From NCBI GenBank assembly GCA_031414595.1, contig JANNVX010000064.1, positions 9,283 through 73,282 on the forward strand: a stretch of 64,000 bases of DNA. The letters run 5' to 3'. Every line of letters starts with the position of its first letter. Within the stretch, counting starts at the first letter, position 1. The notes under the pieces were generated by a model. The model made no database searches and was not told the origin of the DNA. It saw only the letters and a program-made list of their open reading frames with translations. Source of the DNA: Deinococcales bacterium. Its GTDB lineage: Bacteria; Deinococcota; Deinococci; Deinococcales; JAAFIG01. This document shows positions 1,525 to 32,074 of this stretch, one piece after another. A program made the position numbers and the translations under genes.

Positions 1525-3075
1525 ATGAACATGACAAAACTCAGAAACGTACTTCTGGTCGCTTTTTTCGCCCTCTCGAGTTTATGCGCCCCAGCCTTGG
1601 GACAACGAATCACCAATGATCGCTTCCCCAATGACGCACGATTTGACCAATTGGTAACGGTAGACATTCCTAGCAGTGGGATGGAATTATCACAGTACCT
1701 ACGTGAACTTGCCAGCCTAGTTAAACTCCAAGCCACCACTGAAGGTATTGCTGCTAAGAATGTGTCGTATAACTTCAAAGCCATTCCATTTCGTCAGGTG
1801 TGGAGCATGGTAGTTTCTTTGAACAACCTTGATTACGAACTCCTGCCTAATGATGTGGTGGTGGTTGGTCCTCCAGAAGTGGTGCAGAAATTCCGTCCAC
1901 CCGCCCCTGTTCAAACCGTAACCCCAACCAATACCACGCCAGCCGCAGTTTTGGTGGTTAAAACTTACGAAATTAAGTCCAACGCCGAAAATATCGCTAA
2001 GGCACTCAGCGCCCAATTTACCGATGTAAAAATTGTGCCTGTGGTCGGAACAAACAAATTGGTGATTACTGCCACACAAAGTCAGCACACTGATATTGCC
2101 GCGTTATTGGTACAAATTGATATTGCCAACACAGCACCCGTCGTGACCGATAGCTCAAGAATTGTACAGGAATTGTATGCGGTATCTTTTGGTAAGGCTT
2201 CTCGTTTAGCCGATATTCTAAAGCAATTGGTGGCAGGACCCACCACCACAGGCAATACAACCACTGGAACAGCCGCACCAAACGCTGTCGCAGTCCAAGC
2301 AGTTCCTAATATCAGCATTGTTGCCGATGACACCTCAAACACACTGATTATTCGCGGACCTGAAGCCTCGATAGCTGGATTAATTGCCTTGGTGCAAAAA
2401 CTTGATAAACCACAGCAATTGGTCAACATTGGGATTCGGATTCAAGAAAATAACGATTCTGCAACCCGTTCATTAGGTGTTGATTGGAAAAGCATCGGGC
2501 TTGGTAACTTCTCTGGTTCGATTATCGGCGGAGCGCTAAACTTTGTGGCAGACGCAACCAATAGCTTGGCTGGGTTAAATGTGACGGCTGCTTTGAACGC
2601 CCTCGAGACCCAAGGCTTATCGCGCCGAATTAACGACACAACCCTGACCGTTCTTAACAATGGAACTGGCTCTGTTCGTTCTGGTGGTCGAATCGAATTA
2701 AGTATTCCTGGAACAGCCACAAACATCAACAAAACCCTGACATTTGGTGTGAAAATTGATGCTTCGCCAACCATTGCCGCCGATGGCAGCATTACTCTGG
2801 ATCTGAATGCTGAAGTGAGTTCGGTTCAAAATGCAGCCAATCCAAACCCAAACCGTATTGATTTTGTGGATAACACCGCTAAGTCCATTGTTCGCTTGAA
2901 GTCTGGACAAACACTCTTACTGGCAAGTTTACTCGCCACAACCCAAGACACAACCACCTCGGGAGTGCCAATTCTGAGTGCAATACCTCTGATTGGTGAT
3001 TTGTTCAAGACCACCAAAACTCAAGATGACCAAAAGCAACTTCTGGTTGTGATTACAGCCGACATCATCAAATAA
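1525..3075 (+). CDS. pilQ: Type IV pilus/competence secretin
   Basis: Signal peptide, N domains with (G/A)KASRLADIL and VADDTSNTLIIRG, and a secretin C domain (LGVDW, ALETQG, GVPILSAIPLIGDLFK). Confidence 0.9.
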   Translation: MNMTKLRNVLLVAFFALSSLCAPALGQRITNDRFPNDARFDQLVTVDIPSSGMELSQYLRELASLVKLQATTEGIAAKNVSYNFKAIPFRQVWSMVVSLNNLDYELLPNDVVVVGPPEVVQKFRPPAPVQTVTPTNTTPAAVLVVKTYEIKSNAENIAKALSAQFTDVKIVPVVGTNKLVITATQSQHTDIAALLVQIDIANTAPVVTDSSRIVQELYAVSFGKASRLADILKQLVAGPTTTGNTTTGTAAPNAVAVQAVPNISIVADDTSNTLIIRGPEASIAGLIALVQKLDKPQQLVNIGIRIQENNDSATRSLGVDWKSIGLGNFSGSIIGGALNFVADATNSLAGLNVTAALNALETQGLSRRINDTTLTVLNNGTGSVRSGGRIELSIPGTATNINKTLTFGVKIDASPTIAADGSITLDLNAEVSSVQNAANPNPNRIDFVDNTAKSIVRLKSGQTLLLASLLATTQDTTTSGVPILSAIPLIGDLFKTTKTQDDQKQLLVVITADIIK

Positions 3076-3088
3076 ACCAAGCACCAAC

Positions 3089-3116
3089 AAAATGCCCCCA
3101 AGTTTGGGGGCATTTT
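3089..3116. terminator. Bidirectional intrinsic terminator
   Basis: aaaatgccccca-agtt-tgggggcatttt lies between convergent pilQ and the DUF790 gene. Confidence 0.9.
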
Positions 3117-4357
3117 TATATTGGGTGAACCAAGGAATTCGGCAAGCGTTCGGCGAGTTTCAGCACATTTTTAGGCTCGAGAACTCCTTTGAACCAAATA
3201 ATTTGATTGTTGTAGCGCTCGAGTTTTAGGGCGGTTTCTTTGCCTAAATTCAGGCGTTGTGAAACTGCCAAAATCAAATCTGGGCGCTCGGAGGCTTGAA
3301 TTTTTCGCAGTTTGCGTTCTAAATACTCGGCTCGCCAGTAGCCGATAATCTCAAGTAAAAGGCTGCGCCCGTCTGGGTGAACCAGCCTAAAATCTGGAAT
3401 CATGACTGTGCCGCCTAGGTCTACAATGTCTACTTCACGCTCGAGTTGCCAATCGGTTTGGGTAAGTGCAAAACGACTGGCAAAAGATTGCTCGAGCAAA
3501 CTGTCAAACATTTTTCCAGCGCTGTAATGTGATTTTAAGGTTGTGCTGTCGTTCAAAACGTATTCGGCTTCGTCCCTAGAACCATCGTAATGGCGCACTT
3601 GGATTTTACTTTGTAATGTCCATTTGGAAACATGCAGCAGGGCGGGTAAAAACTTGGCAAAAGCGATGCCATACCGTGTGCTGGGTTGAAATAAACTCGA
3701 AGGACCATCGAGCATAATGGTGTAGCCTGCATCTGGATCGCCGTTAATACGGTGCATTAAACCAAAGAGTTTTAGGTATTTGAACAACAGCTTGTACTGC
3801 CCGGGGTTGTTGCGGTGGGCTGTCACAAGCAATTCTGAGGCACGGTACAAGATACCTTGGGCTTGTGCAAGGTTATAGCGCGTCAGCAGCCATTCTGGAG
3901 TCGGGGCAGTAAAGGCAATAATTTGGGCTTCGCGCAAGTCGGCGTACAGGCTTTGTTCTAGGTTGACTCGAGTAATGGGTCTGGGTAAACCTGCGCTGAG
4001 TGTTGTTGCTACCATCTCGAGGGTTTGAGCGGCAGTGGCTAGGCTTGGGCGGTGCTTGGCTGCCATGGCAAAGACTTCGGCTCGAGCTACTGCGGGTTCA
4101 ATACTGCTTTGGGCGCTAAATTCACAACTTTCGGAGTACAACAAATGGGCTAACCCTCGGCGAACTCGGTAATCGGTGCTGTCGGCTGTATCCGCCTCGA
4201 GTGCTTCGTCTAGATCACGTCTTGAACGCCCATGATGCACTTCAAATAACAAAATAATGCCTCGAGCCAATTCGAGGTTATCGGCACTTAGCTCGAGGGC
4301 GTGGGGGGTAATAATGCCACCACGAAAAACATTGATTAAAAATTCGGTAGGTAGCAC
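3116..4357 (-). CDS. DUF790 family (Bax1-like) PD-(D/E)XK endonuclease
   Basis: YNLAQAQGILY, LDGPSSLF...RYG..FAKFLPALL and IPDF...LEIIGYW motifs. GTG start has CATAAT 6 nt upstream. Confidence 0.85.
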   Translation of the reverse strand: MLPTEFLINVFRGGIITPHALELSADNLELARGIILLFEVHHGRSRRDLDEALEADTADSTDYRVRRGLAHLLYSESCEFSAQSSIEPAVARAEVFAMAAKHRPSLATAAQTLEMVATTLSAGLPRPITRVNLEQSLYADLREAQIIAFTAPTPEWLLTRYNLAQAQGILYRASELLVTAHRNNPGQYKLLFKYLKLFGLMHRINGDPDAGYTIMLDGPSSLFQPSTRYGIAFAKFLPALLHVSKWTLQSKIQVRHYDGSRDEAEYVLNDSTTLKSHYSAGKMFDSLLEQSFASRFALTQTDWQLEREVDIVDLGGTVMIPDFRLVHPDGRSLLLEIIGYWRAEYLERKLRKIQASERPDLILAVSQRLNLGKETALKLERYNNQIIWFKGVLEPKNVLKLAERLPNSLVHPI

Positions 4358-14141: not shown

Positions 14142-15743
14142 TTAATTCTGCTCGAGAATTATTTTGTCCTGTACCAAAATTCGGCGTGTGGCAATCGTCT
14201 CAAGTAAGCGCCTGTCATGCGAAGCCAGTAACAATGTACCCGTATACTCGAGTAATAATTTCTCGAGAGCAGCAATTGCATCAGTATCCAGATTATTGGT
14301 GGGTTCATCCAAAATCAGCAATGAAGCTCGAGTGACCGATAACCGCGCTAAGGTTAAACGGGTGCGTTGCCCACCAGATAAAGTAGCAATGACTCGGGAT
14401 GGTTCTTTGGGCAACCTTAAACTCGCCAGCAACGCATAGATTTCCTTGGTTTGCAAATGCGGATTAGCAGACAGCAGCGCCTCTTCAAGGGTGATGAATT
14501 CGTTGATTTCCTCAGTGTTCTGGGCTGCCCAGTAGACAGTCACATTCTGCCCGAAAGTCACATTGCCCGTAAACCCGAGTTGCCCTAGAATGGCTTTGAT
14601 TAAGCTGCTCTTACCACCACCATTTGCTCCGACCAACGCAACTTTTTCACCACGTCCAATAAATAAATTAACCTTCTCGAGAATTATTTTTTCATCACGC
14701 TGCACCGTCACACCCTCGAGCTTAAGAACTTCAAACGCACCGACTGGCACAGCATCCAACTGAATTTTGGTCAAAAAACCATCTTCAAAAGGCTTCTCGA
14801 GTTCGCCCATGTGTTCAATGCGTTTCTCGAGTGCCAGCGCACGTTTGCCTTGCTTATGCGACGCTCGGTTCATCAAATGAAAGGCAGTGGTGGCATCACG
14901 GCTTCCCACTCGGTGCTTATTTTCGCTTCTCGAGGCTTGGGCAATGGCGGCTTGGCGCTCAAGGGCTAATTGTTTGATTTTACGTTCATGATTTTCAAAC
15001 GCCAGCAATTGGTTTTCTCGAATGGCTTTTTTAAGCGCCATTGCTTGGCTAAAATTCCCTTCGTACAAGCTGACTTTTTGCCGCTCGAGTTCATAACAAC
15101 GCGTCACTGTCGCATCTAAAAAAGCCCTGTCGTGCGAAACAATCATAAAACCCGCGTCAGAAGCTAAAATCCAATGCTCAAGCCAAGTTAAACTGTCTAA
15201 ATCCAAGTGATTGGTTGGTTCATCCAACAAGTAAAAATCGGCTGGCTGAATCAGTAACCGAGCCAGTAATGCGCGGCGTTCCTGCCCACCAGAAAGCGCG
15301 ATACTCGAGCCTGAGCCTTCTAAACCCAGTCCAGCCAAGATTTCCTCAGCCCGAATTTCAAGGTCGTAGCCACCCGCAATTCTAAATTCTTCTTCTAGCA
15401 GTGCGTACTCGGTAAGATGCTCAGGGCTTGGATTCTCGAGGGCGACTTGGGCTGCCTCGAGTTTATGTTTCAAATCTTTAAGCGCATCGGGCAACACCAC
15501 ATCACGCAGCGCACCTGTCTCGAGGGTCGTGCGTTGTGCGAGATACGCCACTCGCCCAGTCAATGTCACTGTGCCAGTATCAGGTGGCTCAAAACCAGCC
15601 AGAATTTTGAGCAGCGTGGTTTTACCACTGCCATTACGACCCAGCAGCGCAACCCGTTCGCCCATCTGTAACTCGAGGGCGACATCATCAAAAATTAAAT
15701 TGTCTGCAAAGCGCTTTTGCGCTCCACGCATGATTAAGCTCAC
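14142..15743 (-). CDS. ABC-F family ribosome-binding ATPase, probably of the antibiotic-resistance type
   Basis: Two ABC domains (GRNGSGKTT/LSGGQERR/LLDEPTNHLD and GANGGGKSS/LSGGQRTR/ILDEPTNNLD), no TM segments, long linker. GTG at 15743 follows GGAGG. Confidence 0.9.
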   Translation of the reverse strand: MSLIMRGAQKRFADNLIFDDVALELQMGERVALLGRNGSGKTTLLKILAGFEPPDTGTVTLTGRVAYLAQRTTLETGALRDVVLPDALKDLKHKLEAAQVALENPSPEHLTEYALLEEEFRIAGGYDLEIRAEEILAGLGLEGSGSSIALSGGQERRALLARLLIQPADFYLLDEPTNHLDLDSLTWLEHWILASDAGFMIVSHDRAFLDATVTRCYELERQKVSLYEGNFSQAMALKKAIRENQLLAFENHERKIKQLALERQAAIAQASRSENKHRVGSRDATTAFHLMNRASHKQGKRALALEKRIEHMGELEKPFEDGFLTKIQLDAVPVGAFEVLKLEGVTVQRDEKIILEKVNLFIGRGEKVALVGANGGGKSSLIKAILGQLGFTGNVTFGQNVTVYWAAQNTEEINEFITLEEALLSANPHLQTKEIYALLASLRLPKEPSRVIATLSGGQRTRLTLARLSVTRASLLILDEPTNNLDTDAIAALEKLLLEYTGTLLLASHDRRLLETIATRRILVQDKIILEQN

Positions 15744-15788
15744 GTGAACCTCCAAGAAAAAAGGGTGAAGACCTCTTGCCTATGGTGA

Positions 15789-15806
15789 TTAACGCAAACG
15801 TGTCAT
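15789..15806 (-). promoter_or_regulatory. Leader uORF MTRLR upstream of the ABC-F gene
   Basis: AAAGGA-7 nt-ATG ACA CGT TTG CGT TAA, 45 nt before the ABC-F start. Confidence 0.7.
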
Positions 15807-15946
15807 GCAGTAGTCCTTTGAAATAATTAAAGCCGTTGACTCGAGCCAATTCTCGAGGGAGTGGTTTAGATTAACCCAAAATGTGCAGTAAAATCATTAC
15901 GAAAAATGGCGTATCTCTCACCCGGATTTTTGTTAGCATACGCGGC

Positions 15947-16441
15947 GTGAATCCGCTTGTTGGCATTATCATGGGCAGCCAATCCGACTTAGAAACTATG
16001 CAGCACACGGCGAATACCTTGCGTGACCTCGAGATACCTTTTGAAATGCGAATTGTTAGCGCTCATCGCACCCCAGATTTACTTTTTGAATACGCCAAAA
16101 GCGCCGAGGCTCGAGGGCTTGAAGTGATTATCGCGGGGGCAGGCGGCGCAGCACATTTACCCGGAATGGCAGCCAGTCAAACCGTACTGCCCGTACTTGG
16201 CGTACCCGTACAAAGTAAAGCCCTAAACGGCTTAGATAGCTTACTGAGCATTGTGCAAATGCCGGCTGGAATTCCAGTGGCAACGCTGGCGATTGGCAAC
16301 GCTGGTGCTGTCAATGCGGCACTTTTAGCTGCCGCCATCCTAGGCAATAAATACCCAGAAACTCGAGAGAAGCTGCGTTCTTGGCGTGAAAAACAAACAA
16401 AAACAGTTCTCGAGAACAGCCAACTCGAGGGCAATTCATGA
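15947..16441 (+). CDS. purE: N5-CAIR mutase
   Basis: [17 protein letters not shown] and [18 protein letters not shown] lies 7 nt before GTG 15947. Confidence 0.97.
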
Positions 16442-17538
16442 TTCCGCCCGGAAGCACGATTGGCATTTTGGGTGGTGGGCAACTGGCGCGAATGCTGGCG
16501 CTGGCAGCCAGACCAATGGGATATAACGTCGTGGTACTCGACCCAGACCCAGACTGCCCAGCTTCTGGTGTGGTGGACGAAGTGATTGTTGGTGCATTTG
16601 ACAGCCCGAATGCCTATGCACAACTGGCTCAGGTCTGTGATGTGGTGACTTTAGAGTTTGAGAATATCCCATCAGAACACCTCAAAGCCCTCGAGCAAAC
16701 CGTACCGTTGCGCCCAAACCGCAAAGTTCTTGAACGCAGCCGAGACCGACTGCTCGAGAAGAGCTTTATTACCAAAGCCGGTGTGCGTTGCGCTCCATTC
16801 CAAGCAATTTATGCCAGCAGCGACCTAGTAGCAGCCAGATACCCCGCAATTCTCAAAACTGCCACGTTAGGTTATGACGGCAAAGGACAAGCTAAGGTCT
16901 ACACCCAACTCGAGGCAGTCAAGGCTTTTGAGCGCTTTGGCAGTGTGCCATGTGTTTTAGAAGGTATTATAGATTTTTTTCTCGAGATTAGCGTGATTGT
17001 GGCACGCTCAAGTACCCAAACCAAATGTTTTCCAGTCTTTGAAAACCAGCATCAGAACGGAATTTTGGACATCACCCTAGTGCCGGCTCGGATTCCAGAA
17101 GAAACCGCCGAAAAAGCCAAAGAAATTGCTATTAAACTTGCCAATGCCCTCGAGTTACATGGATTGCTCTGCGTTGAAATGTTTGTCACCAACAACCAAC
17201 AAATTCTGGTCAATGAGATTGCACCAAGACCACACAACTCTGGGCATGTGACAATCGAAGCCTGTCAAACCAGTCAATTTGAACAAGCCGTGCGTGCCGT
17301 CTGCGATTTACCACTTGGCAGCACCGAATTACACTCGAGTGGCGCAATGGCGAACTTACTTGGTGAACACATCTCCCCAACTGCCAACTTTGGTGCAGCG
17401 CTCGAGACTGGGGCAAAACTGCACTTGTACCAAAAGCGCGAAGCTCGAGCAGGGCGCAAGATGGGGCATTTAACCGCGCTTGGTGAAGATGCTTTTGAAA
17501 AAGTTAAAGCGGCTCGAGCAGTGCTTAAAGAAACATAA
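16438..17538 (+). CDS. purK: N5-CAIR synthase
   Basis: [30 protein letters not shown] and GRKMGH; coupled to purE. Confidence 0.97.
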
Positions 17539-17541
17539 ACC

Positions 17542-17625
17542 ATGCTTGAAGAACGTGCTAAGCGGGGTTCTCGAGAAAAGTTCTTAACTGCCTCGCAAGC
17601 CATGCCAAATGTTGCCCAAACCCAG
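17542..17625 (+). pseudogene. C-terminal remnant of a HicB-like/RHH antitoxin
   Basis: LEERAKRGSREKFLTASQAMPNV resembles the C-terminal half of a widespread small antitoxin family; the N-terminal DNA-binding half is absent. Confidence 0.5.
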
Positions 17626-17654
17626 AAGATATGTAATTGCTGTACAATTGAGCC

Positions 17655-17897
17655 ATGAACTTAGACCTACCCAGCAAAACAGCCAAAACCCTCGAGCAAC
17701 TGAGGCGTTCGCTTGGCACGACCAGAGAGGAAGCCATTGACCGCGCCTTGAATTCTTATCTGGACGACATCAAAATGGAACGGGTTTTGACTGTCCCAAA
17801 TCCTCGGACTAAAGACATGACCGAAGATGATGTTTATGAAGTTGCCAATGCTGCCATAAAACGCGCTCGAGCCGAAAAGCGTGAGAAGAAACGGTGA
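17655..17897 (+). CDS. CopG/RHH-type antitoxin
   Basis: 80 aa with an RHH-like N-terminus (LDLP...LEQL...TREEAIDRAL); coupled to the PIN gene. TACAAT lies 6 nt before the ATG. Confidence 0.75.
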   Translation: MNLDLPSKTAKTLEQLRRSLGTTREEAIDRALNSYLDDIKMERVLTVPNPRTKDMTEDDVYEVANAAIKRARAEKREKKR

Positions 17898-18322
17898 GGG
17901 TGGTTTTAGACACCAATATCTGGGTGGCTGGGGCAGCTAGACCCGAAGGCGTAACAGGCGCAATTCTATTTGCTTGGTTCAAAGAAAGGCGTTTTACACT
18001 ACTCACTTCTAAAAGCCAACTCGAGGAATTCAAGACCGTTACCAAGTATGCCCAAGTCAAAAAGATTCTTGGTAAGAACGAAGCTGGGGCATTGGTTAAT
18101 CGAGTTAAGAAATTAGCTGAGTTTGTATCAGTCCGAGGCATTAAGAAAATTAGTCCAGACCCTGACGATGACTTTATTATTGCCATTGCCACCCAAGGCA
18201 AAGCCAATCATCTGGTCTCGAGAAACAAAATAGATTTACTCGACTTGGGTGTGATTGAGAATGTCCGAATGGTTACGCCCGAGCAGTTCCTACGATTTCT
18301 GCGGCGTGGTCGCTTGAACTGA
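17894..18322 (+). CDS. PIN-domain toxin
   Basis: MRVVLDTNIWV, DPDDDFII and LVSRNKIDLL. Confidence 0.9.
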   Translation: MRVVLDTNIWVAGAARPEGVTGAILFAWFKERRFTLLTSKSQLEEFKTVTKYAQVKKILGKNEAGALVNRVKKLAEFVSVRGIKKISPDPDDDFIIAIATQGKANHLVSRNKIDLLDLGVIENVRMVTPEQFLRFLRRGRLN

Positions 18323-18410: not shown

Positions 18411-18580
18411 GCAAAAGTACAAAATCTGGCTGACCATCTGACGAGGTAATAAAAATGCGCCACTTCTGGGCGCTGATAAAAACAAGCATACAGCAATATG
18501 CACAAACTGTCAAATTTATGCACTCGAGTCGTTGTAAACGGTACATATATCAACTCGAGTCGTTGTGAATTCCTTTCGAC

Positions 18581-18624
18581 TTGACAAAATGAGAGACCTA
18601 GGATTACGATGTCGCTATCCTAGG
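18581..18624 (+). promoter_or_regulatory. Sigma70-type promoter and putative PadR operator
   Basis: TTGACA (18581)-18 nt-TACGAT (18605); inverted repeat CCTAGGAT-N12-ATCCTAGG (18597-18624) straddles the -10. Confidence 0.65.
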
Positions 18625-18675
18625 ACAAACTCGAGAAGCGCCAAACGCAGCCACTCGAGAAACGAGGTACAACCC

Positions 18676-19002
18676 ATGAATCCAAACCTCTTAAAAGGCA
18701 ACCTCGACCTGATTTTATTAGCGATTATTGAACCAGAACCGATTTACGGTGGAGAAATCACCCGCGAGGCTTCTGAACGCACCAATGGCTACTTTGACTT
18801 TAAGGAAGGCACACTCTACCCAGCCCTGCACCGACTCGAGAAAAGCGGTTTTATAAGCGGCTCATTCCAATACCTTCCACGCGGTGGAAGCCCCGTAAAA
18901 TTCTACGAACTGACCGAAAGCGGCAAAAAAGAACTCAGCCAAAAACGCCGCGAGCAGCAAGCCTTCGACCAAGCCCTGGATGCACTACTGGGAAAACCAT
19001 GA
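18676..19002 (+). CDS. PadR family transcriptional regulator
   Basis: LLKGNLDLILLAII, YGGEI, EGTLYPALHRLEK and YELTESGK. ATG 18676 follows GAGGT. Confidence 0.93.
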   Translation: MNPNLLKGNLDLILLAIIEPEPIYGGEITREASERTNGYFDFKEGTLYPALHRLEKSGFISGSFQYLPRGGSPVKFYELTESGKKELSQKRREQQAFDQALDALLGKP

Positions 19003-20198
19003 AGCCCCTCGAGCAGTACCTTTCTCGAGCCACACGCGGGCTTTACGGCGCTAAAAAACTCGAGATACAAGCCGAACTTCGCGGCAGTATTGAAGCGCGA
19101 ATCTGGCAACTCGAGAGACAAGGTAACGCCAACGCCCTCGAGACGGCGCTTAGTGAAATGGGTGAAGCCAAAACAATCAATGCTGGTCTTTTTAAGGAGC
19201 ATCTCATGCCAATTATTTCCAAAGCAGTATTTGTAATTATTGCCGCTACAGCCCTGACCATCACCACACTCTCGAGTAGCCAAGCCCAAGTTGGATGGGC
19301 AACAGCGCAAGATGAATACCTCAAAAATTCTGGTTTTCACGATATTTTTGTCAACATCAGCGACTTAAAATCCTCCTTTGAAAAAGCAGGGGCAGTTGTG
19401 ACTGAAAATATGGCTGAGCCAAAAAAATACACCTATAGCGGCTTAATGTTCTCCATATCACCAAGACTCAATTGGGATGAAACATTGCCAGTCCGAACAT
19501 TAGATATTCAGTTGCCAAATTCTGAGCAAAAAATTCAACTTCAAGCCCTCGCTAAATTCAGTTTGAACTCCGAAGAAAAAATTGCCACCACACCAGAGGA
19601 AGCCGCCTTTATTTCTTACAATTACATGATTGACCAATTCAAAGCCACAAAATTGCCTGTTCGTTTTGAAGGTTGGCAAACACCAAAAATTCAAGTTGGT
19701 GATTTTTCTTTCACTTTAGAAAAAACAGGTAGCTCGCCTCGACCCGAAATGCAATACCTTCAAATTTTTTTCAAATGGTGGCTTTTGGATGGTGATAGAC
19801 CAGGCATACGCAACCGACTGAATGCCAGACTTTCTACTTCTGGTTTATCAAGCGACGCTTACCGCCATGCCATACGCACTAATGACCCAGCCAATACAGT
19901 CTATACCATTGTCAGCAGCGAAGGCGGATTTCGCTCGGCGGCTGGTGTAACCGAAGCACAAACCACCCTCACCTTGGCTCGAACCAATGCCCAAGGGATT
20001 CTCGAGTTCACTGCACCATACAGAATTCTACAATTCGGAAAGAATCCTTTGCTCGAGAAAAATGTACCAAGCGTTGCAGGTACAGAAAAAAATCCCGCCC
20101 AAGCACTTTTGCTTAAGTTCACAGGGCGTTTAGATGCTGCTGCAAAACCCGTAGAAATTGTCTTGCCCAGCAAAACAAAAATTGCTGCCCTCAAATAA
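18999..20198 (+). CDS. PadR-associated membrane protein (permease-prefix/HAAS-like N-terminus, one TM helix, external domain)
   Basis: LEQYLSRATRGL...EIQAELRGSIE...ALSEMG N-terminus; coupled to padR. Confidence 0.75.
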   Translation: MKPLEQYLSRATRGLYGAKKLEIQAELRGSIEARIWQLERQGNANALETALSEMGEAKTINAGLFKEHLMPIISKAVFVIIAATALTITTLSSSQAQVGWATAQDEYLKNSGFHDIFVNISDLKSSFEKAGAVVTENMAEPKKYTYSGLMFSISPRLNWDETLPVRTLDIQLPNSEQKIQLQALAKFSLNSEEKIATTPEEAAFISYNYMIDQFKATKLPVRFEGWQTPKIQVGDFSFTLEKTGSSPRPEMQYLQIFFKWWLLDGDRPGIRNRLNARLSTSGLSSDAYRHAIRTNDPANTVYTIVSSEGGFRSAAGVTEAQTTLTLARTNAQGILEFTAPYRILQFGKNPLLEKNVPSVAGTEKNPAQALLLKFTGRLDAAAKPVEIVLPSKTKIAALK

Positions 20199-20225
20199 AC
20201 CTTGGCTCGAGTTTAATCGCTCGAG
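20178..20225 (+). repeat. 48-bp direct repeat, left copy
   Basis: aaaattgctgccctcaaataaaccttggctcgagtttaatcgctcgag; 47/48 identical to 20944-20991. Confidence 0.92.
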
Positions 20226-20317
20226 TCACACGCGATTTGTGTGGTGCTAAAAACTTGAAGTACAAGCCAATCTCGAGTTTGGCACGCAGATACAGAATTC
20301 TCGAGTTTGGTCAGGAT

Positions 20318-20593
20318 TCAAGCGGCTTTTCGCCTTTTGTATGATTTTTTCCCGTAGGCATCGCCACGCTTTTCGATTAAATAAACATCAATCACCGAAT
20401 CTGACATCGTGAACTCAGCACGATAACCACCAACCCGAAGCCGATAACAACCACGCGAACCCGAGATGGGTTTAACATCACCACTTCCAGTTTCAGATAA
20501 AATTGCAAAAGCCAGTAAAATCGCTTCGTTGAATCGAGCATCCAAAGAGCGCATGTCTTTAATTGCGGAAGCACGAAACTCGAGTTTTTTCAC
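20318..20593 (-). CDS. relE: RelE/ParE family toxin
   Basis: LEFRASAIKDM, GDVKPISG and YRLRVGGYR. Confidence 0.88.
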   Translation of the reverse strand: MKKLEFRASAIKDMRSLDARFNEAILLAFAILSETGSGDVKPISGSRGCYRLRVGGYRAEFTMSDSVIDVYLIEKRGDAYGKKSYKRRKAA

Positions 20594-20847
20594 ACTAAAC
20601 CTAGGGCTTTACGGGTTTGTGCCAAACTATAACGTTTATCCGACTGAGAAGACTTTAGACGCGCCTTAGAACGACGTAAAGCAGTGGGGGACAAAACTTC
20701 GGCATCGGTTTTCAAAGCAGTTACTTTCTTTTTATCAACAACTTTTTGCAATGCTAAATCTAGGGCACCGCGTAAAGTAATTTGGTGTTCACGACGAAGC
20801 AGTTCAAGGGTTTCAAATTGGGCATTGGTTACTTCAATGGTTTTCAT
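20590..20847 (-). CDS. Cognate antitoxin of the RelE toxin
   Basis: 85 aa from ATG 20847 (TACACT 6 nt upstream); ends RYSLAQTRKALGLV, overlapping the relE start. Confidence 0.75.
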   Translation of the reverse strand: MKTIEVTNAQFETLELLRREHQITLRGALDLALQKVVDKKKVTALKTDAEVLSPTALRRSKARLKSSQSDKRYSLAQTRKALGLV

Positions 20848-20943
20848 GTCTCGAGTGTACAGATATGAAGTGTTTATTTCAACTTTGCCACCCGTTGGCA
20901 CACACCCACGCTGAGCAACCCGTTTTTTGGTCTTTGTCTTACC

Positions 20944-21003
20944 AAAATTGCAGCCCTCAAATAAACCTTGGCTCGAGTTTAATCGCTCGAGCCAAGGTTT
21001 ATT
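20944..21003. terminator. Right copy of the direct repeat, completing an 18-bp perfect hairpin
   Basis: aataaaccttggctcgag-tttaatcg-ctcgagccaaggtttatt (20960-21003). Confidence 0.85.
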
Positions 21004-21121
21004 AATGCCGGTTCGCACCATTGCCTGACTTCAAGGCTAATCGGCAATCACAGCAAAAGAATTTTTCACACCCGTAGTTTGCCTCGAGTACCGCAAAAAG
21101 TCTTTGACCTAGGTCAAAATC

Positions 21122-23161
21122 CTAAGCCAAGACTTCCCGAGCCACGGGTAACTCGAGAATAAAGGTACTGCCTTGCCCAACAACACTGGTGGCTCTGACC
21201 TGCCCATTCATGCGCTGCATCAGTTCTCGCACCACCGCTAAACCCAATCCAGCCCCGCCAGTGGCTCTGGCTCGAGCTGGGTCGGAGCGGTAAAAAGGTT
21301 CAAAAATTCGCGCCAAATCTTCGGGTTCGATGCCCATGCCCGTGTCCTCGATAGTTAATTCAACAAAATCCACTCTGGCTCGGGCGGCAATTCGCACAAT
21401 GCCCCATTCAGGGGTGTAGCGAATCGCATTGACCATTAAATTGCGTAGCACCTGCTCGAGTCGTTCGCGGTCGGCTTGAATCGGCAAGATTCGTTCTGGA
21501 ACATCGTTAAGTAAGGTTAAATTACTGACCTTCGCGAGAGGTGCAAAACTCTCGAAGAGTTGCGAAACCAATTCTGGTAATGCCACCACCGTGGGTTGAA
21601 ACTCGAGTTGTTCAAGGTCGGCTCGAGACAAAGCAAATAAATCTTCGACCAGACGCTCTAAACGTTGAACTTCGCTTAAAAGTGCTTGGGGGGCAATCGT
21701 TTCGCCACGCAATTCGGCACTCTCGAGCCGCGCCCGCAGCACCGCAATTGGGGTACGAAGTTCATGCGAAGCATTGGCAGTTAAGCCTTTTTTGGCTTCC
21801 AAAACACTTTCGACATTTTGTTTCTCGCGGCGAAGCGCCAGCACATTGCCCTCGAGCCGCGTTGCCATTTTATTAAAAGTTTGCGATAAACGCGCCACTT
21901 CATCCTCGCCGTCTATGTGAACCCGAGCCTCGAGTTGACCACCTTCTAGGGCTTGCACCCCTTTGAGCAATTGCTCGAGCGGACGGGTCAGACGCAAACT
22001 AACGGCGTAACCCAAAAACCCCAATCCCAGAAAAAAAGCCAAAAAAGATTGCGAAAGCGTATCTAAGGCATTGCTAAAATCCGAACTGATTTGGGCTGCA
22101 ATATCGCCCGGTGGACTAGAATTTTGGGTGCTTTGTACCACGCCAAGCACCACATTGGAGACTTTAGGGTCTTGAGAAATGGCTGGACAACCGGCAATCA
22201 CTTCTAAACCAATCACCAACGCCCGACAACGCCCATTTGCAGTGGTGACTAAAATTTCTTTCCACGGCGCAAGTTCTGGGGTTTCAAAACCATCCCCTTC
22301 CGAAAAACGATCAACTCGGTTAGACCCTAAGACTTTACCTGTCGAATCAATTAAAAGTGCAATCCGCCGAGCATCATTAGAAGGTTCGTTGTCCTCGAGT
22401 AGACTGGATTTACGGGTATCAACACCACCCTCTAAAACAGTAAACAAACGTTTTAACTGCTTTTCGTCAGACCCACTGCTCAGCGCCCCTTGAAAGGCTT
22501 TGGCAAGCTCAGTCGCATCGCGCAGCGCATCGCTGGTTAAACGAGCGCTAGGGTCGCGCACCAAAGTAAGCACACCGGGTAAAATTGCCACCACGCTGGC
22601 GGCAAAAACCCCACCAAACAGCGCCAAGGCGGTTAAACGCCAACGCAAATTGCGCCGTCCTTCAAGCCAAACTTCTCTAATTGCAAAAACAAAGGCAAAA
22701 CGCAAAAAGGTAATCACCATCAAGGCTTCAAACGGCACACGGGCAGGTTCAGGGGCAATAATCGCTTGCAGTGCAAAAAAAGTTCGGGTGGGGGCTAAAA
22801 AATTAACCAGAATCACATTGGCGATACAAAACCCAAAACCCAAAAACAAGCCAAAAAAAGCCACCCGTACAACCCGCCACCACCACATTGTCTCCTCGAG
22901 CCGAGAAAGCCGCAGCACCGCCCAGAACCATAAAATATGTTCACTCAGTAACGCCCAGAGTTCTGCCCAAGGCGCAGCCACACCGACCCGAGTCAGCACC
23001 ACCGCCAACCCACGAAAAAATAAGGCAAGCCACAACGCCTCAAGCAGAGCTACCCAAAAAGACCTCGAGTAAACCATCCAATACGAAACACGGCGTTCCT
23101 CGGCATCCACCCGAGGCGAGCCAATAAAAACCCGCCAGCGTTCATCCCTTGAGTAATCCAT
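21122..23161 (-). CDS. Membrane sensor histidine kinase (HAMP, BaeS-like)
   Basis: HAMP domain, ASHELRTP H-box, NLMVNAIRY N-box, DTGMGI and GGAGLGLAV. Confidence 0.93.
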   Translation of the reverse strand: MDYSRDERWRVFIGSPRVDAEERRVSYWMVYSRSFWVALLEALWLALFFRGLAVVLTRVGVAAPWAELWALLSEHILWFWAVLRLSRLEETMWWWRVVRVAFFGLFLGFGFCIANVILVNFLAPTRTFFALQAIIAPEPARVPFEALMVITFLRFAFVFAIREVWLEGRRNLRWRLTALALFGGVFAASVVAILPGVLTLVRDPSARLTSDALRDATELAKAFQGALSSGSDEKQLKRLFTVLEGGVDTRKSSLLEDNEPSNDARRIALLIDSTGKVLGSNRVDRFSEGDGFETPELAPWKEILVTTANGRCRALVIGLEVIAGCPAISQDPKVSNVVLGVVQSTQNSSPPGDIAAQISSDFSNALDTLSQSFLAFFLGLGFLGYAVSLRLTRPLEQLLKGVQALEGGQLEARVHIDGEDEVARLSQTFNKMATRLEGNVLALRREKQNVESVLEAKKGLTANASHELRTPIAVLRARLESAELRGETIAPQALLSEVQRLERLVEDLFALSRADLEQLEFQPTVVALPELVSQLFESFAPLAKVSNLTLLNDVPERILPIQADRERLEQVLRNLMVNAIRYTPEWGIVRIAARARVDFVELTIEDTGMGIEPEDLARIFEPFYRSDPARARATGGAGLGLAVVRELMQRMNGQVRATSVVGQGSTFILELPVAREVLA

Positions 23162-31337: not shown

Positions 31338-32074
31338 TGCAGTTTAGTTTACTCGAGTGGGTCTTGTTGGGGCTTGGTGCATTGATTGCCGGTTCGAGCA
31401 AAGGCGGATTACCGGGGATTAACACCTTAGCCGTGGTTTTTTTTATACAGGTGCTACCCGCCAAAATTGCGACGGGCGCACTCCTACCGCTTTTAATTGC
31501 GGCTGATGTGGTGGCAGTGCTGCTTTTTCGCAATTCTGCCAATTGGCGTGAACTGTGGCGAATTTTTCCAAGTACCGCCGTCGGTGTGGTCTTGGGGGCG
31601 TTATTGCTTGGGCAAATAGATGATGCTGTAGTCAAGCCTCTGGTTGGCATTATTGTCTTGATTTTATGTGCTTTGCAATTCTGGCGTTCAAAAAACGCTG
31701 GCGCGGGCTTAGACTTGGTGCAACACCCTGTTACGGCTGCCTCGGCGGGTATCATTGCAGGGTTTACGACCCTGATTGCCAATGCTGCGGGTCCAATCAT
31801 GACGCTTTATTTACTGGCAATGCGTTTACCAAAAAACGAATTTGTTGGCACGACCGCCTGGTTTTTCTTTGTGGTCAATTTATTCAAGTTGCCTTTTATG
31901 CTTGGGCTTGGACTTATCAATGTCCAAAGTTTAGAACTGAACTTATATTTAATTCCTGTTGTGATACTGGGTGTTTTTATTGGCAGATTCGCCATGCAAA
32001 AACTCGAGCAGAAAACCTTTAATAACCTTGCGCTGATACTGGCTTTTCTGGGTGGATTACGGCTGCTTTTTTAA
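31337..32074 (+). CDS. TauE/SafE family membrane exporter
   Basis: Repeated G..AG.SKGG / AGFTT.IANAAGP motifs and about 8 TM helices. Confidence 0.85.
   Translation: MQFSLLEWVLLGLGALIAGSSKGGLPGINTLAVVFFIQVLPAKIATGALLPLLIAADVVAVLLFRNSANWRELWRIFPSTAVGVVLGALLLGQIDDAVVKPLVGIIVLILCALQFWRSKNAGAGLDLVQHPVTAASAGIIAGFTTLIANAAGPIMTLYLLAMRLPKNEFVGTTAWFFFVVNLFKLPFMLGLGLINVQSLELNLYLIPVVILGVFIGRFAMQKLEQKTFNNLALILAFLGGLRLLF

Follow-up and report, generated by a model that had tools for sequence, protein, structure and literature searches.

The closest described counterpart of the locus reported here is the class named 'insertion with long target duplication' (Nobusato et al., 2000, cited in Furuta, Abe & Kobayashi, 2010, PMC2853133). 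According to the latter paper, the class occurs mainly in bacteria with natural competence, Thermus thermophilus (47/47 bp) among them, and no mechanism is known for it (PMC2853133). Descriptively, our locus, which lies in a window of 64,000 nucleotides (the whole stretch of Deinococcales DNA that was analysed), belongs to this recombinase-free class: direct repeats of more than 30 bp (here 48-54 nt) enclose a small gene unit, the repeat extends over the 3' end of a gene beside it and is single-copy in relatives that have no insert (here contig C165 of genome G001, L026 and L028), mobility genes are absent and the insert, below 20 kb in the class, measures 0.72 kb. It departs from the class in its cargo, a predicted ParE/RelE-type toxin-antitoxin (TA) pair instead of restriction-modification genes, in having a 5' relic of the flanking gene behind one repeat, and in the tendency of junctions to fall at the hyper-abundant palindrome of this genome, CTCGAG. 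In this regard, the relic past the repeat suggests that the 'target duplication' is the remnant of a far longer duplication with a microhomology joint.

In homology-facilitated illegitimate recombination, one homologous anchor is combined with a GC-rich microhomology join of 3-10 nt, and DNA is gained without any recombinase gene. The process was reportedly described in natural transformation by de Vries and Wackernagel and by Prudhomme and co-workers, both in 2002; the term itself is used in PMC6382021. Our locus has the same kind of short, GC-rich microhomology joint common to both parents, and the process would give exactly the order found here, namely an intact gene, half a terminator and a truncated resident copy. 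It differs in that the anchor crossover is not locatable here and host competence is putative, and unequal exchange gives the same product.

Like HIP1 (GCGATCGC) of cyanobacteria, CTCGAG is a hyper-abundant short palindrome spread over coding and non-coding DNA. [quoted passage not shown] The present case differs in its 6-mer word, in its phylum (Deinococcales MAGs) and in the event, which is read from sequence and consists of duplication plus insertion, not deletion.

Displacement produces the orphan gene-tail arrays of Rhs, CDI and T6SS effector-immunity loci, in which the ends of old copies pile up 3' of the active copy, and in the minimal mobile elements of Neisseria different cassettes occupy one spot between conserved genes and are swapped via flanking homology. 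The former recall the present locus with its leftover gene end, and the latter the C67 site of genome G000, which holds different cassettes when compared with G005 and G001. At our locus, unlike in the Rhs, CDI and T6SS arrays, the gene concerned encodes a PadR-linked membrane protein instead of a polymorphic toxin, and the relic is tiny and harbours an unrelated TA operon. Integron cassettes with attC sites differ as well, since no IntI-type recombinase lies on the contig and the repeats are not attC-like with conserved cores, and so do integrative elements of tyrosine recombinases, no integrase being found between or beside the repeats, unlike at islands C58 and C88.

Repeats, hairpin and relics of a second gene copy

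The operon opens with a PadR-family regulator gene (18565..19002, plus strand; Pfam PF03551, E = 5.5e-21), followed by an intact partner gene of 399 aa, copy 1 (18999..20198, plus strand), with CTCGAG at codons 9-10 (19024-19029) and a faint perm_prefix_1 match at the N-terminus of its product. Orthologues at 70-84% amino acid identity always lie 3' of PadR, and in L029 three partner genes stand in a row, with CTCGAG directly past the stops of the first two.

Several features listed in the initial annotation are borne out by our alignments. The core repeats, 20178-20225 and 20944-20991, are identical at 47 of 48 positions (the sole difference is T/A at 20186/20952), and each comprises the final 21 nt of the partner gene, stop included, plus 27 nt 3' of the gene that belong to a terminator. 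Extended to 20175..20228 and 20941..20994 (both on the plus strand), they match at 51 of 54 positions, the left copy consisting of gene tail, stop and the terminator's first 27 nt, the right one of an orphan gene tail and the terminator. Identity stops exactly past the second CTCGAG (20220-20225, the end of the left copy, and 20986-20991), and the inverted repeat at 20960..21003, with perfect 18-bp arms (20960-20977 and 20986-21003) that carry CTCGAG on both sides of an 8-nt loop, is complete in the right copy only. Its fold reaches -33.5 kcal/mol on one strand and -34.2 kcal/mol on the other (z about -8); the left copy has only a shorter stem, part of a -24 kcal/mol fold. The annotation was also right on mobility genes: tyrosine recombinases (PF00589; 6 matches genome-wide, 5 above cut-off) are absent from the locus contig C64, and the ORF list holds no transposase-like ORF within 3 kb of the locus.

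The complete hairpin is likely a two-way terminator between the locus and a convergent histidine kinase gene (21122..23161, minus strand; Pfam HATPase_c, HAMP and HisKA). In relatives a NUDIX gene sits 3' of the hairpin, and a relic of its 3' end (21004..21045, minus strand) aligns here with the post-hairpin sequence of G001, L026, L028 and L029; similarity to the NUDIX gene stops within this relic, and from 21041 on the window matches another G001 contig.

The empty site anticipated by the annotation is present in the same-genus genome G001 and in the metagenome relatives L026 and L028, where a single hairpin and then the same right flank come directly after the gene stop and there is no TA pair. 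Misassembly, which the annotation had allowed for, is excluded: three further assemblies have the same repeat-flanked structure, scaffold L066 from another metagenome covers both repeats and everything between them with a single 1-nt homopolymer difference, and two overlapping G005 contigs agree with the structure. Between G000 and G005, identical tracts alternate in a mosaic with tracts of about 87% identity; compared with G001, PadR and the partner gene are 82% identical and the flanks 89-93%. A truncated homologue, P0008, was considered as an intermediate state and proved to be merely cut by a contig end.

The CTCGAG closing the left repeat is at the same time the start of a second-copy relic of partner codons 9-25 (20220..20268, plus strand). 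This segment is identical to the 5' end of the G001 orthologue at 42 of 50 positions (score 63, where 3000 random genomic segments reach at most 28; BLAST E = 9.5e-6), and it scores 38 against the window's own partner gene (random maximum 34 of 1000). A further stretch, 20263..20317 (plus strand), is probably a relic of the gene's 3' third (codons ~332-350): with an internal 28-nt duplication it aligns with 19992-20029 at a score of 33, of marginal significance and weaker than the N-terminal relic (random maximum 31 in 1000; p = 0.006 against G003).

The microhomology at the relic start measures 6-9 nt, CTCGAG(C/T)CA, a word found both in the terminator and, in all orthologues, at codons 9-11, and the join falls exactly on it. 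In the form CTCGAGCCA it occurs in all orthologue 5' ends and in the terminators of the window, G001 and L028; the L026 terminator reads CTCGAGTCA. Since 20220-20268 is a relic of the partner gene's 5' part, the partner of the hairpin CTCGAG is the CTCGAG at codons 9-10 and not a cassette end, and the joining of the left repeat to the gene's own 5' part points to tandem duplication or homology-facilitated illegitimate recombination.

The relic shares CTTGAAGTA with the G001 allele, whereas copy 1, G003 and G006 have CTCGAGATA (and G007 CTCGAGGTT), which indicates that it is not a fresh duplicate of copy 1. Moreover, the N-terminal relic is 76% identical to copy 1 and the 48-nt tail 98%, so that the donor must have come from another lineage or the tail must have been homogenised; as the gene tail is near-invariant between species, its identity dates nothing.

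The predicted toxin-antitoxin pair and its viral relatives

Between the relics and the right repeat lies a two-gene operon on the minus strand. The putative antitoxin gene comes first (20590..20847, 85 aa; faint RelB/ParD match, E = 0.027) and overlaps by GTGA, at its stop and the toxin start, with a putative toxin gene of the ParE/RelE superfamily (20318..20593, 91 aa), which matches Pfam ParE_toxin with E = 0.0036 at 18.3 bits, below the cut-off of 23; a G001 homologue, 90% identical, matches the PHROG 'RelE-like toxin' with E = 1.3e-11. The antitoxin has five homologous clusters, and those beyond this lineage always have a toxin alongside.

The pair is 81% identical in nucleotides to a G001 virus contig, a similarity confined to the two ORFs. 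The viral pair lies between small ORFs and the packaging ATPase, followed by the VP16/VP17 capsid genes, and this arrangement recurs in eight different contigs, which come from several metagenomes and include C690 of G001. Judged from this gene order, close relatives of the TA pair hold a fixed position in P23-77-like viruses of these bacteria. The pair is also found at another chromosomal site (L063) that has none of these repeats; this copy has kept a relic of the start of the viral packaging ATPase and adjoins a tRNA-like sequence. A toxin search of the viral contig collection gave no match, nor did scans of metagenome contigs with the partner protein and with the gene-tail pattern.

Regarding its edges, the left junction of the pair (20317/20318) is not at CTCGAG. 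On the start side, viral similarity ends at the antitoxin start (20847), 2 nt from a CTCGAG at 20850-20855, within a segment of unassigned origin and strand (20848..20940) that is presumably the TA promoter and operator and whose outer edge (20940/20941) has no CTCGAG. As a decayed copy of partner positions 20040-20177, 20848-20943 scores below the random mean, and such an origin was rejected. Nor are relics of the genes beside the viral pair in G001 supported: 20226-20317 scores 12, below the random mean, and 20851-20945 scores 21 (p = 0.02). As 20848-20940 is not tied to the partner gene, the picture of a TA pair inside a second copy rests mainly on the two outer relics.

CTCGAG and repeat boundaries across the genome

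CTCGAG occurs 383 times in the window, against 8.3 expected, and 23,235 times (5.2 per kb) in the 4.49-Mb genome, where it is the commonest hexamer, three times as frequent as the next. Being far above compositional expectation both in genes and between them, it is a highly iterated palindrome (HIP). Sites are spaced one per 170-190 nt and reach 6-7.5 per kb near gene ends, on both sides of stop codons; the 44-nt hairpin holds two. Among all identical hexamer pairs within 2 kb, 6.3% are CTCGAG, and at a single junction a 6-nt microhomology would already be this word by chance in 6.3% of cases.

The initial annotation had raised the question of an association between CTCGAG and repeat boundaries elsewhere, and among two-copy, bracket-type local direct repeats such an association is indeed found: in 7 of 19 the word lies 0-6 nt from a boundary, against 1.35-2.0 expected (p = 2e-4 to 2.5e-3), a small count with an offset window picked after the data were seen. 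Counted by boundary, 9 of 38 are within 6 nt, against 1.4-2 expected, and conserved CTCGAG at the edges of decayed duplications could have drawn alignment ends towards the word. About 12 of the 19 repeats have no CTCGAG at their ends, and nor does the window's second repeat pair (24173/26228). A boundary histogram of all repeats is uninformative because repeat families and tandem repeat genes dominate it. A causal role of CTCGAG is supported but not proven.

At least five other TA pairs of this genome (MazF, PIN+RHH, HEPN+MNT, ParE and HigB-like+HTH) are bracketed by local repeats of 27-81 nt, and the repeat boundary of the other cassettes lies 0, 0, 1, 3, 3 or 6 nt past CTCGAG. Their repeats vary in sequence and length and have only CTCGAG in common, the opposite repeat end is usually free of the word, and the long hairpin is found at the present locus only. 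The variable offsets and unlike repeats fit short-homology recombination and not a site-specific hairpin docking site. In C30, three TA pairs form an array set apart by three copies of one CTCGAG-containing motif, and similarity of G004 to the right flank of C102 begins exactly at CTCGAG. The word is absent from the repeat ends of the integrase-bearing islands C58 and C88 (repeats of 46 and 107 nt) and of cassettes C88, C18 and C25, and at the C67 site, where G005 and G001 hold another cassette, there is only a duplication of about 10 nt whose end is not at CTCGAG. BLAST of cassette interiors against flanks is too insensitive for 50-nt relics and misses even the established one.

As a separate observation, the C102 cassette is 99% identical in G001, which may reflect recent transfer or a mixed bin; contigs break at its repeat.

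A model for the origin of the locus

The locus consists of an intact partner gene with half a terminator, followed by a promoterless, 5'-truncated copy with the full terminator. This second copy is a wreck that has lost about 0.9 kb internally, and the two-ORF, putative ParE/RelE-type TA operon lies in its remnant. We propose, with a probability of roughly 55%, that the PadR-partner gene was duplicated, with a short-homology join at CTCGAG and later erosion around the TA pair, and that the ends of this duplication survive as the 48-nt repeats, which would not be attachment sites of a TA cassette. In an illegitimate join, CTCGAG(C/T)CA in the right arm of the terminator would have been connected to its other occurrence, at codons 9-11 of the gene. 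Two routes are conceivable: unequal exchange between genome copies, giving a tandem duplication, or homology-facilitated illegitimate recombination of transformed DNA, with a homologous crossover upstream and the microhomology join downstream, which would place an imported intact allele before the resident copy. The order of duplication and TA insertion is one that we infer. The putative addictive property of the TA pair and the use of the terminator by the convergent kinase gene may then protect the remnant against loss through recombination between the repeats. CTCGAG would have been involved because no other shared word is nearly as common, and it may in addition be a preferred point of breakage or pairing. 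By extension, we put forward tentatively, as a possibility with the odds against it, that CTCGAG is a preferred joint for recombinase-free gene gain in this Deinococcales clade, where incoming or sister DNA would be spliced at CTCGAG microhomologies, perhaps where the word gives rise to breaks or pairing points, yielding long target duplications round TA and defence cassettes.

The initial annotation supposed that the TA unit was moved by recombination at the CTCGAG hairpin. That the junction is CTCGAG and that an empty allele exists agrees with this; the unit is not a discrete cassette, given the partner relics at both 20220-20268 and, probably, 20263-20317. The wider idea, an integron-like or site-specific system in which small cassettes dock at CTCGAG hairpins or are excised from them, and by which the 0.72-kb unit entered and can leave, would account for the empty sites in the three relatives, the six small cassettes of one genome with boundaries 0-6 nt from CTCGAG, the C30 array and the start of G004 similarity at the C102 flank, but it is distinctly unlikely. 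The DNA between the repeats opens with the neighbouring gene's own 5' relic, the offsets vary, the word is usually missing at the other repeat end, the left TA junction does not lie on it, the repeats of different loci share neither sequence nor structure, no recombinase gene lies nearby, and these repeats are absent where the same pair is found in viruses and at a second chromosomal site. We also rejected the idea of a fragment that was cut at XhoI-type sites and ligated: the insert has five internal CTCGAG sites, and a search of eight genomes of the genus, itself without positive control, found no PF04555 nuclease.

Very improbable, in our view, is an origin from an integrated virus or island with the repeats as its attL and attR and with the TA pair and an integrase among its genes, everything save the addictive TA having since been deleted. 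The carriage of TA relatives by P23-77-like viruses, the ATPase relic beside a tRNA-like sequence in L063 and the two true integrase islands of the genome speak for such an origin; however, in the window the TA pair has no flanking viral relic, its toxin-side flank is a relic of the host partner gene, viral similarity stops at the ORF ends and the contig has no integrase. Another reading accepts ordinary illegitimate recombination or replication slippage and attributes the breakpoint on CTCGAG merely to the density of the word. That density, overall and near gene ends, the dozen or so repeats and the second window pair without CTCGAG ends, and the C67 site in G005 and G001 are all in line with it, yet the excess among the 38 boundaries exceeds what it predicts, and both parents carry CTCGAG at the join, where a microhomology of 6-9 nt would arise by random joining about once in 4,000; we hold this reading to be rather unlikely.

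Ever since 2000, long target duplication has served as a description to which no mechanism was attached, and the junction at this locus shows how one such duplication arose: read from its sequence, a terminator was probably joined to the gene's own 5' end by a microhomology of 6-9 nt, and the redundant copy would then have eroded round an addictive, virus-derived TA pair. Because the join uses a hyper-iterated palindrome and other boundaries lean to CTCGAG, the role of such palindromes in recombination, a long-standing question, becomes testable. Should the link to CTCGAG be a coincidence, the locus would remain a well-documented example, with a TA pair, of a known type of insertion. If CTCGAG is a preferred joint, it would provide a mechanism for an unexplained class of insertions together with a first functional consequence of a highly iterated palindrome outside cyanobacteria.

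Repeats, terminator hairpin and empty sites

On recomparison, the two 48-nt direct repeats that enclose the toxin–antitoxin (TA) pair at the end of the PadR-partner gene (399 aa, 18999-20198, plus strand) are identical at 47 of 48 positions (20178-20225 against 20944-20991), and an extended pair (20175-20228 and 20941-20994) matches at 51 of 54. Each copy consists of the final 21 nt of 18999-20198, stop codon included, followed by ACCTTGG-CTCGAG-TTTAATCG-CTCGAG, and, as the initial annotation had described, identity stops directly past the second CTCGAG. Likewise, only the right copy continues into CCAAGGTTTATT, which completes a perfect hairpin with 18-bp arms and an 8-nt loop (-33.5 kcal/mol, z = -8); on folding, the left copy keeps just a shorter stem. 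In the partner-gene terminator hairpin of every relative examined, CTCGAG flanks the loop on both sides.

An assembly artefact is excluded: L066, a scaffold of a different metagenome, runs through both repeats and all of the DNA they enclose, and departs by one 1-nt homopolymer difference from the locus of the uncultured Deinococcales host. The same repeat structure is present on two overlapping contigs of a second metagenome-assembled genome, G005. This different species representative is near-identical to the window over the compared 15400-17990 and 18565-22727 (contigs C476 and C663), except for a tract of ~370 nt at about 17005-17370 with ~87% identity and adjoining stretches of 93-96%, a pattern suggestive of recombination mosaicism or of a mixed bin.

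The empty site that an insertion predicts was found in the same-genus genome G001 and in the metagenome loci L026 and L028. The G001 orthologue ends in ...AAAATTGCTGCCCTCAAATAA, followed by a single hairpin, CTCGAGTTTAATCGCTCGAGCCAAG, and by the window-like right flank AATGCCAGTTCGCACCATTG..., which in G001 forms the 3' end of a NUDIX gene; L026 and L028 share this arrangement of one hairpin and the same right flank. The NUDIX gene is whole in these three and in L029, and in the window ~42 nt of its 3' tail are left after the hairpin (21004-21045). Past 21045 the similarity shifts to a kinase/response-regulator operon whose G001 counterpart is on a separate contig. This remnant and the switch to the kinase operon point to more than one rearrangement at this spot.

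A partner-gene relic and a virus-derived TA module

The proposal of a discrete TA cassette is borne out as regards the empty allele, but the cassette is not clean, because a relic of the partner gene borders the left copy. Directly 3' of that copy, 20220-20268 aligns with partner-gene codons 9-25. Against the intact window gene (copy 1) the score is 38 (random genomic maximum 34 in 1000), and against the G001 orthologue, with 42 of 50 positions identical, it reaches 63 (maximum 28 in 3000); a genome search recovered the match independently (E = 9.5e-6). The alignment begins on the same CTCGAG that closes the left repeat, so that the junction leads from the terminator to the 5' end of the gene. 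Codons 9-13 read CTCGAGCCACACG in all partner-gene orthologues, the terminator reads CTCGAGCCAAGG and that of L026 CTCGAGTCAAG, which gives 6-9 nt common to both parents at the join. Such a junction is the signature of a duplication running from codon 9 through half of the terminator.

Further into the insert, 20263-20317 resembles codons ~332-350 with weaker support (p about 0.001-0.006), having a 12-mer in common with copy 1 and CTCGAGTTTGG in common with G003. On comparison, neither the partner gene nor viral DNA accounted for the 93-nt stretch upstream of the antitoxin (20848-20940). CTTGAAGTA is common to the relic and the G001 allele; copy 1, G003 and G006 have CTCGAGATA there. The relic differs from G001 at 8 positions and from copy 1 at 12. 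Being nearer to the G001 allele, it was not copied recently from copy 1. At 19059-19064 copy 1 has CTCGAG, and the relic (20254-20259) and the G001 allele have CTTGAA, a difference that would fit gain or loss of the palindrome through point substitution.

Between the repeats, a predicted antitoxin of 85 aa and a predicted toxin of 91 aa (ParE/RelE superfamily) lie on the minus strand and overlap by GTGA. Their homologue on contig C690 of G001 (L014, 2252-2781) shows 81% nucleotide identity, with 90% aa identity for the toxin, and stands in the order M23 peptidase, small ORFs, antitoxin, toxin, packaging ATPase, and VP16-like and VP17-like capsid genes; C690 is a P23-77-like virus or provirus. 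The arrangement occurs on 8 distinct contigs from several metagenomes (C690 plus 7 others; examples are L057, L059 and L065). Nucleotide similarity between window and C690 is confined to the two ORFs, from antitoxin ATG to toxin stop. A further chromosomal copy (L063, 1825-2700; antitoxin 80% aa identity) is followed by a relic of a viral packaging-ATPase start (ATGGCTGGCGGACAAACCAAA) and a tRNA-like sequence, and resembles a provirus reduced to its final remnants. The viral homologues and the L063 copy mark the TA pair as a module of viral origin, which has entered chromosomes on more than one occasion. The toxin-side junction (20317/20318) carries no CTCGAG; one at 20850-20855 sits 2 nt from the antitoxin start. 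Just upstream of the PadR operon lies a second TA pair (RHH antitoxin and PIN toxin, 17655-18322), for which a short-word search found no flanking direct repeat.

CTCGAG at repeat boundaries across the genome

The window contains 383 CTCGAG against 8.3 expected, and the genome 23,235 in 4.49 Mb (5.2 per kb, 3x the next hexamer), with a slightly higher density near stop codons (6-7.5 per kb). At such density a breakpoint flush with CTCGAG is not very rare by chance, and the density itself has to serve as the yardstick. CTCGAG also makes up 6.3% of all pairs of identical hexamers that lie no more than 2 kb apart in this genome.

Genome self-comparison, restricted to local direct repeats that occur in two copies and show neither collinear neighbours nor homology in their flanks, yielded 19 bracket-type pairs. 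Six of them (C64, C67, C30, C102, C75 and C29) are spaced 581-837 nt, and each of these holds a small cassette. Besides the studied ParE/RelE-type locus on C64 (48-nt repeats), TA pairs bracketed by 27-81-nt repeats are PemK/MazF with antitoxin (C67, 66112-66916; 52 nt), PIN with RHH (C30, 3461-4270; 42 nt), HEPN with MNT nucleotidyltransferase (C102, 31006-31788; 27 nt), ParE (C75, 42487-43105; 38 nt) and HigB-like with HTH (C98, 183596-184610; 81 nt), most with CTCGAG at or near one end. The set also includes a 202-aa ORF of no known type (C29; 59 nt), two PIN pairs (C88), ATPase-based two-gene units (C18, C25) and two true integrase islands (C58, C88).

On C30, at 1860-4300, three copies of GGGTACGC(A/G)ACGGC(G/A)TAAGCTCGAGC separate three TA pairs, HigB-like, BrnT-like and VapC-like by translation, with a Pfam check for the VapC-like pair only (PIN+RHH); the middle motif copy is cut 3 nt past CTCGAG. 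On C102, the similarity of 31762-31800 to L072 (G004 C173, ~175-200), which lies upstream of the gene right of the cassette, starts exactly at a CTCGAG, and the sequences left of that CTCGAG are unrelated.

The suspected association of repeat ends with CTCGAG is borne out genome-wide: in 7 of the 19 pairs CTCGAG lies 0-6 nt inside a boundary (1.35-2.0 repeats expected; binomial p = 2e-4 at genome-wide density, 2.5e-3 at gene-end density), which amounts to 9 of 38 boundaries. A role of the hairpin as a specific docking site is nevertheless weakened. Offsets vary (0, 0, 1, 3, 3, 6 nt), the opposite repeat end usually lacks CTCGAG, and it is absent from both boundaries of the window pair 24173-24220/26228-26275 (42/48) and from the repeat ends of both integrase islands. 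Moreover, several repeats are the well-kept central parts of duplications that were once longer and have decayed (their flanks, aligned in register, are identical at 22-23 of 45 positions at C67, C30 and C49), so that a conserved CTCGAG could draw alignment ends to itself. At the C67 site, where the window's genome has the MazEF pair, G005 (L048, C171) and G001 (L049/L050) carry a different 1.7-kb ATPase cassette, whose duplication is only ~10 nt (CTATTAGA(A/G)A) over the overlapping stops of two convergent genes; selection for intact gene ends is accordingly a sufficient reason why these duplications are seen.

Proposed history and relation to known systems

We propose that an illegitimate join at CTCGAG(C/T)CA would have linked the right arm of the terminator to partner-gene codons 9-11. 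Unequal exchange between genome copies could have produced a tandem duplication, one copy later being free to decay and take in the TA pair. Tandem copies do arise in this clade, as L029 (1664-5363) carries three partner-gene paralogues in a series, which match the window protein at aa identities of 56%, 70% and 33%, both inter-copy junctions reading TAA-CTCGAG-GA(G/T)GCATC-ATG. Homology-facilitated illegitimate recombination would yield an identical product: an imported PadR-partner allele would have crossed over homologously upstream, its terminator joining codon 9 of the resident allele by microhomology, and the TA pair may by then have interrupted the resident allele. Import is consistent with, rather than proven by, the relic's closeness to the allele of G001, an identity to G001 that is lower in PadR and partner gene (82%) than in the flanks (89-93%), and the way in which fully identical tracts alternate with ~87% identical ones between the window's genome and G005. 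The repeats, relics, empty sites and viral relatives are observations; how the events followed one another, by which route, and the stabilising part played by the TA pair and the shared terminator are what we infer.

Insertions with long target duplication are defined by repeats of >30 bp that have a single counterpart in the genome of a relative, by an insert of <20 kb and by the absence of mobility genes. They have been described with restriction-modification genes as cargo, chiefly from naturally competent species, and one example, from Thermus thermophilus, has repeats of 47 bp (PMC2853133). The window locus has this architecture, but its cargo is a TA pair instead of restriction-modification genes. 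When tested as an integron cassette and as an integrase-borne island, it qualified as neither. The role proposed for CTCGAG would parallel those reported for cyanobacterial HIP1, which is described in references cited in PMC5861425 as promoting excision, and homologous sites of which improve transformation (preprint 10.1101/2024.09.10.611283).

Together, our findings confirm what the initial annotation observed, partly support its interpretation, and place the locus, with its TA cargo, in a known class of recombinase-free insertions. CTCGAG may cause such joins or may merely be the most available short homology. What is new is that the junction microhomology is the genome's hyper-iterated palindrome, that repeat boundaries lean to CTCGAG genome-wide, and that the preserved junction shows the 'target duplication' to be the probable remnant of a larger, microhomology-joined duplication.
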